Shown here: positions 9,497 to 27,672 of the stretch, one piece after another
Numbering within the stretch: position 1 is the stretch's first letter
How the letters are laid out: the number at the start of each line of letters is the position of its first letter
Virus record (IMG/VR): IMGVR_UViG_3300022902_000008
DNA: 64,000 nt
From: a virus
Reading direction: 5' to 3' (one strand)
Notes under the pieces: generated by a model
Databases searched by the model: none
Seen by the model: only the letters and a program-made list of their open reading frames with translations
Told to the model about the DNA's origin: nothing
Translations under genes and position numbers: made by a program

Positions 9497-9751
9497 ATGA
9501 GCCAACCAAAATATAAGTTAGGAGACATAGTTTGGGTTAAAACGGATAATACTAATTATCCTGAAGATCTTACTGATCATAACAATAACAATAAGATATA
9601 TTATCAATTAGCAAGGATACAAAATTGGTATTTAAGGGAAAAGGAAGTTTCAGATAAATCTTTTACTATATATACAGTTAAATATTGTTGCAATACTTTT
9701 TTGTTGAACAATGTTTCAGAGATGGAAATACTGAGGAAGGAGGACATTTAA
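9497..9751 (+). CDS. Small SH3/KOW-like paralogue
   Basis: MSQPKYKLGDIVWVK...NVSEMEIL; SD GGAGG. Confidence 0.75.
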   Translation: MSQPKYKLGDIVWVKTDNTNYPEDLTDHNNNNKIYYQLARIQNWYLREKEVSDKSFTIYTVKYCCNTFLLNNVSEMEILRKEDI

Positions 9752-10016: not shown

Positions 10017-10367
10017 ATGATTATTAATGGAAAAGAGTATCCAACAGTGTACCCAACTAAGGAAGATGTTGTTTATAATTATAAGGTGGGTGACATTATT
10101 TATTTTAAGGTATTAAATGACAGTATTTATATTGAAGTGGTTAACCTTGTTAATGATAAGATATTATCTCCTGGCAGAAGAATTAGTAGAGAAGGAGATT
10201 TTTATGTTTTAGATTCTCCTCGTTGTCTCATAGGTATAATTGATTTTTGTGATTATGTTAATGAATGTGATTATTATTATCCTGTTTACACTGTTGTTAC
10301 GCTTAATGATAAGCAATCAATCAATGTTTCAGAATTAGAGATTGTAGAAAGGGTTGAGGCTTCATGA
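10017..10367 (+). CDS. SH3/KOW-like paralogue
   Basis: YKVGDIIYFK...IGII...NVSELEIV. Confidence 0.7.
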   Translation: MIINGKEYPTVYPTKEDVVYNYKVGDIIYFKVLNDSIYIEVVNLVNDKILSPGRRISREGDFYVLDSPRCLIGIIDFCDYVNECDYYYPVYTVVTLNDKQSINVSELEIVERVEAS

Positions 10368-10750
10368 ACAACAAGCCAACAATGACAGAACATTCTAATG
10401 GAACAAAACATTGGCTTTTAAATGAAAAACTTCATCGAGAAGATGGTCCTGCAATAGTTCGGCCTAATGGAACAAAGGCATGGTATCTAAATGGAAAACG
10501 TCATCGAGAAGATGGGCCTGCTATTGAAAGTCTATATAAAAGAAAAGAATGGTGGTTGAATGGAAAGTGTTATTGTGATATTATCAAAGGAAAGTTGCAT
10601 AACAACAATTTCCTGGTATCAGATCGATATATAGGACTAGTAATAATAATGGGGGGAAAAGAAAGAGTAAGGTTCATGAAGACAACAAACAACAAATATT
10701 TTGTAATTGAGGAAAATAATACTTCAGAAGTGGTTAACAAACAGGGTTGA
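10364..10750 (+). CDS. HRxDGPA repeat protein
   Basis: Paralogue of 5261; C-terminus reads into the promoter repeat (SEVVNKQG). Confidence 0.85.
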   Translation: MNNKPTMTEHSNGTKHWLLNEKLHREDGPAIVRPNGTKAWYLNGKRHREDGPAIESLYKRKEWWLNGKCYCDIIKGKLHNNNFLVSDRYIGLVIIMGGKERVRFMKTTNNKYFVIEENNTSEVVNKQG

Positions 10751-10762
10751 TTGTGTTATAGT
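10734..10762 (+). promoter_or_regulatory. Conserved phage promoter
   Basis: TTAACA-17-TATAGT, TGn. Confidence 0.85.
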
Positions 10763-10852
10763 GGTTTCAGAGATTGACAGAAAGAGAGTTCTTTGACAAT
10801 AAGGGGGGAAAGAAAAAGAGACAAAAAAAATAAAATTAATTTCAAAAAGTGG

Positions 10853-10881
10853 TTAACAGAATGGTCAAAGTGTGTTATAGT
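10853..10881 (+). promoter_or_regulatory. Conserved phage promoter
   Basis: TTAACA-17-TATAGT, TGn; A-rich UP element. Confidence 0.85.
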
Positions 10882-11039
10882 GGTTTTGTTGATAACGGAG
10901 GCCGTCGCTCATTGATAATTTAAAAACGTTAATAATAAAACAAAGAAGGAGGGATATTTATTTTGATTGTTTAAAATTTTATTATAAAGACTTGACAGAC
11001 TTGGTATTAGCATTATATTAAACAGAAGGGAAACATTAG

Positions 11040-11066
11040 ATGAATAGAATTCGAGATCAGACTTAA
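11040..11066 (+). CDS. Candidate micropeptide MNRIRDQT
   Basis: SD GAAGGGA, ATG, RIRD-x-x-stop shared with two neighbours. Confidence 0.5.
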   Translation: MNRIRDQT

Positions 11067-11168
11067 AAGGTAAATTATATTTAAATTTAATTAGATGTTT
11101 GATTTGATTGTTAGTTGTTTGATAATAAAATATATAAATAATAATTTAAAATAAAAGGTTAAAACATA

Positions 11169-11201
11169 ATGATTAATAATAGAATTCGAGATGGCCCTTG
11201 A
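11169..11201 (+). CDS. Candidate micropeptide MINNRIRDGP
   Basis: AAAGG upstream, ATG, RIRD-x-P-stop. Confidence 0.5.
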   Translation: MINNRIRDGP

Positions 11202-11257
11202 CAATAAATAAACCGAAAGTTTGATTATATAAAATTTAGCATGGAGAAAATAAATTA

Positions 11258-11290
11258 ATGAGTAATATTAGAATTAGAGATGTGCCTTGA
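11258..11290 (+). CDS. Candidate micropeptide MSNIRIRDVP
   Basis: GGAG upstream, ATG, RIRD-x-P-stop; synonymous CGA>AGA change relative to the other copies. Confidence 0.5.
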   Translation: MSNIRIRDVP

Positions 11291-11339
11291 CAATAAAATA
11301 AAAGTTCTTGGTTGGCTGTAATAGTAAAGTGAGCATGTG

Positions 11340-11523
11340 TTCATGACACCAACAAGAAGATCCTCTATGTGTTGTTCATTGTTAATGTATTATTGTCACT
11401 GTTTTTCTGAAAATTTAGGGGAGTTTTTAGAAGTGACAAAAGTGATGTCAATAGCTTTCCTCCTTTCGTTATTGACATCTAGTTCTTATCAGGGGCCAAC
11501 GTTCATTGTTGGCCCTTTTTTTT
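11340..11523 (+). ncRNA. Candidate multi-hairpin RNA with an anti-SD loop
   Basis: Stems TTGTCACT/AGTGACAA (11393-11439) and GATGTCAATA/TATTGACATC (11444-11479, loop contains TTCCTCCTTT), followed by a terminator. Confidence 0.5.
11491..11523 (+). terminator. Rho-independent terminator
   Basis: GGGCCAAC-7nt-GTTGGCCC followed by T8. Confidence 0.9.
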
Positions 11524-11561
11524 ATAAGGGAGATAAAAATAAAATTAATCTTCAAAAATGG

Positions 11562-11627: not shown

Positions 11628-11777
11628 ATGATGATTGGAAAGGAAGTAAGGGCAATTGTGGGTTCTTCATTTACTTCTTATCGATCTGTGATGGTTGATC
11701 GTGCAACGAAGGGAAAGGTCAAACTAACCTTCCAGTATGTGAGTACGTTTGGCAAGGATAAAAGGGGAGAGGAATAA
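11628..11777 (+). CDS. Small hypothetical cassette gene
   Basis: SD GGGAGG before ATG 11628/11631; lies between two promoter repeats. Confidence 0.6.
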   Translation: MMIGKEVRAIVGSSFTSYRSVMVDRATKGKVKLTFQYVSTFGKDKRGEE

Positions 11778-11812
11778 AAAATAAAAAACTTTCAAAAAGT
11801 GGTTAACAAACA
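11768..11812. repeat. 45-bp perfect direct repeat (second copy 12141-12185): gene end, UP element and -35
   Basis: agaggaataaaaaataaaaaactttcaaaaagtggttaacaaaca occurs twice. Confidence 0.95.
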
Positions 11813-11831
11813 AAGTTGTTTATGATATAGT
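11803..11831 (+). promoter_or_regulatory. Conserved phage promoter
   Basis: TTAACA-17-TATAGT, TGn. Confidence 0.85.
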
Positions 11832-11877
11832 GTGGTTATGTTCGGTTGCAGTTGACAACAACAAGAAGGAGAAACCG

Positions 11878-12150
11878 ATGGAAAGCATAACTGAGAAAGA
11901 GAGGAAAGTTCTTCAGGGTATTATTACTAATGATTTTCAGGATGCCGCAACTGGAACTGAGGCTGTGATTATGAATGATATTTGGGTTGATTGCCTGGAA
12001 GATTCCACAGGAGATATTCGGGGAAAAATTTTGTCTGGTGTGGTTTCTAGCCTTTCTAAAAAAGGCCTTGTCTGGACTGATGGGGAAGGTATCGCAATAA
12101 CTAAGGAGGGATGGACCGTTCTGAACTCAACGAATAGCGAAGAGGAATAA
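11878..12150 (+). CDS. Winged-helix DNA-binding protein
   Basis: ITEKERKVL...SGVVSSLSKKGLV...IAITKEG; SD AAGGAG. Confidence 0.7.
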   Translation: MESITEKERKVLQGIITNDFQDAATGTEAVIMNDIWVDCLEDSTGDIRGKILSGVVSSLSKKGLVWTDGEGIAITKEGWTVLNSTNSEEE

Positions 12151-26405: not shown

Positions 26406-26427
26406 TTAAAAAAAATAGCTATTATGG

Positions 26428-26456
26428 TTAACAGATGTTGTTTAATATGTTATAGT
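26428..26456 (+). promoter_or_regulatory. Conserved phage promoter
   Basis: TTAACA-17-TATAGT, TGn. Confidence 0.8.
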
Positions 26457-26490
26457 GTCTTTGTTGACAATGAAGGAAGGGGGCTTTTTA

Positions 26491-27672
26491 ATGAAGATAT
26501 ATCAAGTAGGTGGTAGCATTAGAGATGAGGTTCTTGGTATAGAGGCCAAGGATTTTGATTATGTTGTAGTTGGCGCTACTGTTGCTGAGTTTAAGGATAA
26601 ATATCCTGAAGCTGAGTTGGTTGGTAAATCTTTTCCTGTTTTTATTGTTGATGGTGATGAATATGCTTTTGCAAGGATTGAAAGAAAGATTGGTGTTGGT
26701 CATTGTGGGTTTGATGTTGATTATGAACCTACTGTAACCATTGAAGAGGATTTGATGAGAAGGGATCTTACGATTAACGCAATTGCAAGAGATGTTGAAA
26801 CTGGCGAAGTGGTTTATGTTGATGGTGCTTATGAAGATATTAAAAGTGGTGTTCTTCGTCATGTATCTGATGCTTTTTGTGAAGACCCTTTGAGGGTTTA
26901 TAGGCTTGCAAGATTTGCTGCTAAGTTTCCTGAGTTTGTTGTTTGTGACAAAACCAAAAAGCTCTGCGAAGGCATGAAGCGTGAGCTTTCTCACCTCCCG
27001 ACTGAGCGTGTTTTTGCCGAACTTTGCAAGGCGCTTAATTGCGAAATGCCGAGTAGGTTTTTTACTGTCCTTGATGAATGTGGTGTGCTCGATGTTCATT
27101 TTAGTGAGATTGTTAAAATGAAAATTATCCCCGCAGGCCCAATTGAACACCATCCAGAGGGAGATCTTTTTAGTCATACTATGCAAGTGGTTGATGGTAC
27201 TGTTAAGGATAGTGTGGCTAGGTTTGGAGCTTTGGTTCATGATTTTGGTAAGCTTGTTACTGACTCTAATAATTATCCTTGCCATTACCGTCATGATAGC
27301 GAAGGTGTTTTTAGTAGTGTCGTTATGGCTTTTTGTGATAAGTTTAAGGTAGGTGTAGAATATTCTAGGATGGCAACGTTTTGTGCGAGGCATCATATGA
27401 GGGTTGGAAAGTTTTTTGAAATGAAGCCTGGGAAGCTTGTTTCTATGTTTGAGTATATGTCTAGGTTTGTTATTGATTCTGATAAGTTTTTGTCTGTTGT
27501 TAATGCTGACGGTCAGAATGTTTGTAAAAAAGCTTTTGATTGTTGCTTAAAAAGTGTTATGATGGTAAAGCTTCCGGTGGAATATCATGATCGTGGAACT
27601 AAGTGTAAAGATATTCTTATGAATCTTAGATGTCATAAACTTAACAATTGTAGGAATTTTTATAGTAAATAA
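26491..27672 (+). CDS. cca: Multifunctional CCA-adding tRNA nucleotidyltransferase with HD domain
   Basis: VGGSIRD, DFDY, EDLMRRDLTINAIA, EDPLRVYRLARF, HHPEGD, HDFGK. Confidence 0.92.
   Translation: MKIYQVGGSIRDEVLGIEAKDFDYVVVGATVAEFKDKYPEAELVGKSFPVFIVDGDEYAFARIERKIGVGHCGFDVDYEPTVTIEEDLMRRDLTINAIARDVETGEVVYVDGAYEDIKSGVLRHVSDAFCEDPLRVYRLARFAAKFPEFVVCDKTKKLCEGMKRELSHLPTERVFAELCKALNCEMPSRFFTVLDECGVLDVHFSEIVKMKIIPAGPIEHHPEGDLFSHTMQVVDGTVKDSVARFGALVHDFGKLVTDSNNYPCHYRHDSEGVFSSVVMAFCDKFKVGVEYSRMATFCARHHMRVGKFFEMKPGKLVSMFEYMSRFVIDSDKFLSVVNADGQNVCKKAFDCCLKSVMMVKLPVEYHDRGTKCKDILMNLRCHKLNNCRNFYSK

Follow-up and report, generated by a model that had tools for sequence, protein, structure and literature searches.

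Short leaders with an R/K-x-R/K motif precede inducible resistance genes of the ermD and mef/msr types, and dual-function small RNAs such as RNAIII with hld, SR1 with SR1P and SgrS with SgrT encode peptides of 26-43 residues. Ribosome arrest peptides (SecM, ApdA, ApdP, ApcA and YwcI) are found in bacteria, where they control a sec or yidC-type gene lying downstream; they have export signals and lengths of tens to hundreds of residues, and the arrest peptides known so far serve bacteria in sensing protein export or antibiotics. The mechanism of RAPP arrest has been described (PMC10951233), while IRAGP and RSPP are known arrest motifs, the latter used as a query motif, and peptides ending N-S-P or N-A-P stall with a stop codon in the A site (PMC10987492). 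Much shorter frames also affect translation: with early AGA codons, or in minigenes of 3-8 codons, peptidyl-tRNA-Arg builds up and protein synthesis is inhibited (PMC2490762). Work in B. subtilis shows that long untranslated RNA is stabilised when a ribosome stalls upstream of it, close to the 5′ end (PMC3997798). The phage frames analysed herein fall with arrest and leader peptides and minigenes, a known kind; the rows in which phages carry them seem undescribed, as a first-pass annotation of this DNA had supposed. In our literature search the peptide word occurred in no paper, and no published description of arrest-type minigene rows in phages was found.

The window, meaning the whole stretch of 64,000 nucleotides that was analysed, comprises bases 12312-76311 of a 76-kb IMG/VR virus record, which is about 13% complete according to CheckV; contigs of the same phage reach up to 217 kb, with a G+C content of about 30%. 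Directly 3′ of gene 10364-10750 there are 0.9 kb without a convincing gene, in which the first-pass annotation had placed three micropeptide genes behind two tandem early promoters and a third promoter. All of these elements are present exactly as it described them (Table 1), including the ATG codons and the stops two codons after R-I-R-D. The purine-rich Shine-Dalgarno (SD)-like runs lie 8, 10 and 11 nt upstream of frames 1, 2 and 3, respectively, and are weak and distant from the start as compared to those of the phage's real genes. The early promoter consensus of P1 and P2 recurs in about 20 copies in the window. Judging from the position of its -10 element, P3 is predicted to start transcription near 11026, which would place the SD of frame 1 at the extreme 5′ end of the RNA. 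The three-codon frame in the P2 leader is probably a further minigene of the array. Similarly, strong-SD frames of 1-9 codons lie ahead of R-x-R-D frames in other phage loci described below (L127, L132, L198, L129, L334 and L357), the opening frame being ATG-TAA in L127 and ATG-AAG-TAA in L132. In minigenes 2 and 3 an in-frame CAA-TAA after the TGA provides a back-up stop. The RNA domain behind the frames folds at -65.7 kcal/mol (z = -4.1; an equal fold in 0 of 200 shuffles), and no Rfam covariance model matched at the gathering threshold. Its loop UUUCCUCCUUUC is anti-Shine-Dalgarno-like and complementary to the strong SDs of the phage, including the one in its own leader at 10946-10953. The intrinsic terminator, 200 nt past frame 3, is the only one predicted in the array stretch, and the gene that follows it has its own promoter at 11560.

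Table 1. Features of the minigene array and its surroundings (window coordinates).
Feature	Positions	Strand	Details
Fourth 12-mer copy	10331..10342	+	inside gene 10017-10367, in another frame; not a minigene
Early promoter P1	10732..10762	+	GGTTAACA-N17-TATAGT; transcript enters the array
Early promoter P2	10851..10881	+	GGTTAACA-N17-TATAGT
Short frame with strong SD	10946..10974	+	AAGGAGGG at 10946-10953, 9 nt, then TTG-ATT-GTT-TAA at 10963-10974 (3 codons); in P2 leader
Promoter P3	10992..11019	+	TTGACA-16-TATATT; 11/12 to sigma-70 consensus
Minigene 1	11026..11066	+	AAGGGA at 11026-11031; frame 11040-11066, 8 codons, MNRIRDQT, ends Q-T-TAA
Minigene 2	11153..11207	+	AAAAGG at 11153-11158; frame 11169-11201, 10 codons, MINNRIRDGP, ends G-P-TGA
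Minigene 3	11243..11296	+	GGAG at 11243-11246; frame 11258-11290, 10 codons, MSNIRIRDVP, ends V-P-TGA
Structured 3′ RNA domain	11305..11479	+	three hairpins, the third with loop UUUCCUCCUUUC
Intrinsic terminator	11491..11525	+	11-bp stem, 6 G-C pairs, T8 tail

The endings of the Pro-class frames share some features with arrest peptides. Members of the proline class present R-x-x-P and then a stop, which in the window stands in a UGA-C context with the back-up UAA two codons on. The arrest motifs RAGP and RAPP have the same R-x-x-P spacing: R-D-G-P here corresponds to R-A-G-P in SecM and YwcI, and I-R-D-G-P of frame 2 to I-R-A-G-P in SecM. Furthermore, Pro directly precedes the stop, as in the N-S-P-stop and N-A-P-stop arrest classes. 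The motifs themselves differ, however, since R-D-G-P, R-D-V-P and R-D-Q-T carry Asp in place of Ala or Gly. The phage frames, at 7-11 codons and arranged in rows, also include a Thr class without Pro, unlike RAPP/RAGP peptides, and they precede non-coding RNA whereas the known peptides regulate a downstream protein gene. In place of the export signal, spacer and localisation gene of an arrest-peptide upstream frame, the array offers 8-10 codons without a hydrophobic segment, and a terminator comes next. Resistance leaders likewise combine short frames with an Arg-x-Arg motif, but there an antibiotic is required for stalling, which exposes the SD of the resistance gene, whereas here there are three frames and no gene before the terminator. 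Nor is the layout that of an attenuator leader of the erm, cat or trp type, as the terminator lies behind three stable hairpins and the next gene is self-promoted. Dual-function small RNAs resemble the array in carrying a small frame and a base-pairing domain on one transcript; their peptides are single-copy and act as proteins, in contrast to three frames of 8-10 codons with stall-like endings. Finally, the view that this is not a classical arbitrium precursor is upheld, as the frames lack a signal peptide and the neighbouring genes include no such families.

The window by itself does not prove selection on the peptide. Four copies of the 12-mer AGAATTMGAGAT are present in the 76-kb record, always on the + strand and all within 1 kb, and allowing up to one mismatch there are 6 matches in the window as compared to 0.96 expected, a number reached in 0 of 100 shuffles. 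The three array units are degenerate tandem duplicates, however, and copies 2 and 3 form a 42-nt repeat with 88% identity that continues beyond the stop as TGA-CAA-TAA, so the spacers are not unrelated, as had been claimed, and ATG and stop were inherited together rather than representing three independent finds. It is true that the sole difference in the core (CGA versus AGA) is synonymous, yet about one quarter of random changes there would be. A single synonymous change of chance ~0.25, together with inherited starts and stops, therefore makes the original argument for conservation acting on the peptide unsound. Other contigs of the same phage that cover the array (L005-L009, L015, L016 and L019) are identical across it and thus provide no within-species information; they differ only outside it, where L007 has an assembly gap and L019 has lost a 373-bp cassette. 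The phage collection contained no DNA match to this phage and no related locus traceable via the ATPase, whose next-best homologue is 39% identical, and a scan of viral contigs with the early promoter consensus gave single chance matches only.

Evidence from other phages is considerably more informative. A metagenome scan for two 12-mers spaced 62-92 nt apart returned mostly unrelated tandem repeats, along with four homologous loci, and later scans, mostly with nucleotide patterns, enlarged this family to a sample that is biased towards the Arg codons of those patterns. The resulting consensus, M-x(0-3)-R-[I/A]-R-D-x-[T/P]-(0-3 residues)-stop, was found in eight further lineages whose G+C contents range from 23 to 53% (Table 2), either as a single frame or as two or three in a row, and at least nine otherwise unrelated phage lineages carry these predicted frames. 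For example, the frame of minigene 1 is near-identical in L129 and L357, with related frames in L131, L132 and L127, while the R-D-x-P-stop ending of minigene 2 is also found in L129 (two copies), L198, L119 and L322/L334. Beyond approximately 45 nt of SD and frame the loci have no DNA in common, and no alignable domain was found between the downstream RNAs of different lineages. Matches to an 18-mer in bacterial genomes were rejected as members: with the exception of one prophage-like Oscillospiraceae locus they lie in ordinary proteins, one being a putatively RelA/SpoT-like SAR11 protein of 407 residues and the others resembling an internal helix of OmpR-type regulators.

Table 2. Short R-x-R-D frames and their companions by phage lineage.
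Lineage	G+C	Encoded peptides
This phage	30%	MNRIRDQT, MINNRIRDGP, MSNIRIRDVP
L129	49%	MNRIRDQTN, MMARARDQP, MNRARDQP
L198 (Oscillospiraceae isolate, prophage-like early region)	about 50% (estimate)	MNRIRDQP
L131/L132	23%	MNRIRDKTK or MNRIRDKTN; MHRIRDEMM (L132 only); MSLVMIRAGPR
L127	32%	MNRIRDSTE
L119	27%	MNRIRDAP, MCRIRDSTN
L076 group (240-kb phages)	39%	MNRIRDETKTF, twice
L322/L334	53%	MRARDQP
L357	46%	MNLNRIRDQT, preceded by MMHARSPPY

Several features of these loci argue that the frames are read as such. When the family loci were scanned with the core alone (AGR-NNN-MGA-GAY), demanding neither start nor stop, every copy in an intergenic row was preceded by an ATG at a distance of 1-4 codons and followed by a stop after 2-5 codons; the remaining matches were the in-gene copy at 10331 and two low-complexity ones. 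L322/L334 and L357 were also found by ATG-free patterns, yet they have an ATG behind GGAGG and AAGG, respectively. SD words (GGAG, GAGG, AGGA, AAGG or GGGA) lie upstream of 11 of the 16 members as compared to 12% of ATGs in the same loci (p = 2e-7), and GGAG or GAGG alone upstream of 8/16 versus 4.7%; the five members without an SD word come from very AT-rich phages. Ahead of the core, lengths differ by multiples of three; codon 8 reads ACN or CCN, its third base being T, C or G, and in all eight members of the Pro class the stop directly follows Pro. Six of the differences between close relatives are synonymous and one is an ATG-to-GTG start, while the two that are non-synonymous fall in the last sense codon; for seven silent-type changes out of nine, with ~25% synonymous by chance, a binomial estimate gives ~0.001. 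Between such relatives the frames change at the same pace as their flanks, but silently. At the level of sequence, this pattern of substitutions, starts and stops is that of a translated frame, and it supports the claim that conservation acts on the reading frame, with homologous frames in eight further lineages. The first-pass annotation had proposed a pattern search in related phages and had reasoned that homologues keeping the 12-mer while losing ATG, frame or stop would point to a protein-binding iteron. Instead, all array copies in nine lineages keep all three, and the only copy independent of frame is that at 10331-10342. An in-frame enrichment of ATGA upstream of the core was dropped as uninformative, because chance matches sit in coding DNA, which itself biases frames.

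The Arg codons are constrained in addition to the residues that they encode. AGA and AGG are the only codons at the first Arg, and CGA and AGA share the second about equally, even in phages of 46-53% G+C, where they make up 5-9% of Arg codons. When codons were allowed to be degenerate, the scan returned AGA/ATT/MGA/GAY alone and no recoded member, which may reflect AT-rich hosts or constraint at the codon level. Secondary nearby copies use these codons too, but they were picked with AGR-NNN-MGA-GAY or with the peptide pattern (R-I-R-D only), so that a bias in Arg codons remains; likewise, L129 and L131 share 28 of 30 bases, 18 of which are fixed by the search pattern. As judged by sequence comparison, nucleotides are nonetheless conserved beyond the needs of the peptide. 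Either the Arg codons matter alongside the residues, for instance because their tRNAs are slow or scarce, or an additional function resides in the RNA sequence.

In two lineages, companion frames carry known arrest motifs. On the reverse strands of L131 (34-69) and L132 (about 10159-10194), the same row includes an 11-codon frame ending I-R-A-G-P-R-stop, which contains the known IRAGP motif and differs between the two by nothing other than three synonymous changes and an ATG/GTG start. On the reverse strand of L357 (686-715), a frame of nine codons that follows AGGAG ends H-A-R-S-P-P-Y-stop, which is RAPP-like and contains RSPP, and it lies 45 nt upstream of the R-I-R-D-Q-T frame. Untranslated RNA follows the rows as well. 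A structured RNA and a terminator stand behind them in this phage, L119 and L357, and in L131/L132 a 230-nt non-coding RNA with a terminator is ~91% conserved while the flanking genes are unrelated. In L334 (1300-1750), six- and seven-codon minigenes lie between a putative reverse-transcriptase gene and two putative tRNA genes, the first of which is within ~100 nt of the stop of the second minigene.

These observations lead us to favour, with a probability of about 0.42, a reading in which the frames are genuine translated minigenes that pause ribosomes and act in cis on an early non-coding RNA. Cis-acting pausing is favoured by the R-x-x-P/stop geometry, the neighbouring arrest motifs, the untranslated RNA downstream and the precedent of the ermC 5′ stabiliser, where downstream RNA is protected or remodelled by a ribosome held close to the 5′ end (PMC3997798). 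From the observed frames and signals, their conservation among phages and the pattern of substitutions, we infer translation, pausing and the effect in cis. Specifically, the three tandem early promoters would yield an RNA of approximately 500-750 nt without an ordinary protein, onto which ribosomes would load at the SD-like sites to translate 8-10 codons. The nascent R-x-R-D-x-P would then slow or hold the ribosome at the stop, where a C-terminal Pro is followed by UGA-C, and the parked ribosomes would protect, in cis, the untranslated RNA that follows, forming a 5′ roadblock against 5′-to-3′ decay, premature termination or misfolding. As a result, the structured RNA with its anti-SD loop would accumulate early in infection; in other phages, the protected downstream RNA would be a different non-coding RNA or tRNA genes. 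A roadblock to an RNase J type of decay is suggested by analogy, the nature of the host being surmised from Firmicute-like promoters and SDs and from the one Oscillospiraceae prophage-like locus. Among the functions that the first-pass annotation had offered, ribosome-pausing frames ahead of an RNA fit best, owing to the Pro-stop rule, the R-x-x-P geometry and the arrest motifs nearby, while decoy or signal peptides gained no specific support. Several points count against pausing: 8-10 residues do not reach the tunnel constriction used in SecM-type arrest, members of the Thr class, including minigene 1, have no Pro, the SD-like runs of the window are weak and distant, and the nucleotides are conserved more strongly than a peptide requires. 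Moreover, neither R-D-x-P nor R-x-R-D is among the motifs tested in the arrest literature consulted (PMC10987492, PMC10951233), in which the listed RAPP/RAGP-like variants include RADP but not R-D-x-P (PMC10987492). A broader and more doubtful proposal is that unrelated groups of large phages make an early RNA that holds ribosomes, joining rows of stall-prone minigenes of the R-x-R-D-x-P/T, IRAGP and RSPP types to a decoy or base-pairing domain (here the anti-Shine-Dalgarno loop), in order to capture, park or probe host ribosomes or tRNAs during takeover. Such RNAs might, for example, detect or weaken defences that target translation, or shield tRNA operons and non-coding RNAs of the phage.

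Of the alternatives to pausing in cis, we rank sequestration in trans first, followed by a nucleic-acid signal, free peptides and relics. In the first of these, which we consider unlikely, the frames would behave as minigenes of the lambda bar type, in which peptidyl-tRNA drop-off or long-lived stalled complexes sequester tRNAs (Arg-UCU, Arg-ICG, Pro) or ribosomes and thereby damp early host translation. Bar and rare-codon minigenes are, like the array, very short SD-led early phage frames with AGA-type Arg near the start (PMC2490762), and the Arg codons fixed at codons 2-7 even where they are rare, together with this early-AGA precedent, would fit such sequestration. Multi-copy rows behind three promoters and the accompanying 1-3-codon frames with strong SDs would fit it as well, as would the tRNA nucleotidyltransferase (CCA-adding enzyme) encoded in the window at 26455-27672 (PHROG E = 2e-97) directly downstream of an early promoter at 26426. 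There is no tRNA gene within the 64-kb window. Bar frames have 2-3 codons (engineered ones up to ~8) and an irrelevant peptide; here the frames have 8, 10 and 10 codons, in addition to the three-codon frame at 10963-10974, and both peptide core and Pro-stop are conserved. Against sequestration, drop-off needs no conserved Asp, Thr or Pro, nor a Pro-stop rule. Furthermore, AGA is common in the phage's own genes (252 of 701 Arg codons), such that starving its tRNA would hurt the phage, and the 76-kb record, representing 13% of the genome, holds no Pth or RF-like gene.

An improbable alternative is that the repeats are a nucleic-acid signal and are open only incidentally, serving as operators or iterons, boxA-like antitermination sites or promoter elements. 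On the window alone a nucleic-acid repeat had first seemed likelier than a peptide, on account of the duplicates, the in-gene copy, the word TTGACAATAA and a minus-strand site. The repeat of copies 2 and 3 passes the stop, and their TGA belongs to TTGACAATAA, which recurs at 10793 and 15841, following the promoters at 10732 and 15785. In fact, TTGAYAA(C/T) appears about 8-20 nt after the -10 element of many early promoters (10889, 11605, 11852, 20859, 22026, 26464 and others) and could be an operator-like or boxA-like leader word. For boxA, the consensus is UGCUCUUUAACA in E. coli and AUGAUCUUUGAAA in its B. subtilis-like form (PMC13753749). Counted by hand, the words after the cores of frames 2 and 3 match 9/13 of the latter, which may not be the consensus of this host, with 9/11 at 10788; the boxA-like word is not common to other lineages. 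The fourth 12-mer copy is read E-L-E-I in its gene, and its R-I-R-D frame has no start and a later stop. Gene 10017-10367 contains this copy close to its 3′ end and also begins with four codons resembling those of minigene 2, and it may have recombined with the array. On the minus strand, copies 2 and 3 read TTGTCA-17-TATTAT (11176-11204) and TTGTCA-17-TAATAT (11265-11293), matching the sigma-70 consensus at 10 and 9 of 12 positions, respectively, from which the array may be transcribed antisense. By contrast, the TTGACA boxes of the repeats on the + strand were rejected as promoters, as they have no -10 element at 16-18 nt, the nearest candidate lying at 21-27 nt. Third codon positions are also nearly invariant across lineages, as a signal in the nucleic acid would have it. 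What the phages have in common is SD and frame, however, not TTGACAATAA; start, frame and stop persist in all array copies despite in-frame changes in length, the changes between close relatives are synonymous, and a single sequence-specific regulator across nine unrelated phages is unlikely.

It is less probable still that released peptides of 8-10 residues are themselves active, binding a host or phage protein via R-x-R-D and so serving as decoys, inhibitors or signals. A conserved R-x-R-D core between ends that vary in length and sequence would suit a binding peptide, and several copies per RNA would raise its dose. Very short cytoplasmic peptides are usually degraded, however, and the loci encode neither a signal peptide nor an enzyme for processing or modification, and no protein gene is conserved next to them. 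This explanation would also leave the fixed Arg codons, the Pro-stop rule and the company of IRAGP and RSPP unaccounted for. Least probable are functionless relics of deleted cassettes or local duplications in a recombination-prone early region: natural variants do drop whole cassettes between promoter repeats (L019 lacks 11768-12140), the start of frame 2 and the 12-mer resemble the start and the end, respectively, of gene 10017-10367 (repeat families D5 and D8), and P1 is followed by an SD-like G-run and no gene, but there is no protein remnant in 10751-11540 and the same frame in eight other lineages speaks against a local scar. In a translated search of all nearby open reading frames against 10751-11540, similarity was confined to promoters, and a pseudogene remnant was rejected.

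If the minigenes are indeed translated and stall ribosomes, phages would exploit arrest-type nascent peptides on RNAs that code for nothing else. This would represent a new class of early takeover element and would explain 'empty' promoter-rich stretches of large phage genomes, in which annotation should then go below 15 codons. The family is small and sharply defined, and its fixed Arg codons (AGA, CGA) and strict Pro-stop ending give clear mutational predictions.

Two further observations concern the early region around the array. The genes at 9497-9751 and 10017-10367, for which no Pfam or PHROG match was found, are small paralogues that both end N-V-S-E-(M/L)-E-I. In contig L019, as compared to window positions 11768-12140, exactly 373 bp are missing between promoter-containing direct repeats, which removes the 90-residue gene 11878-12150 and suggests that early genes behave as cassettes that are gained and lost.
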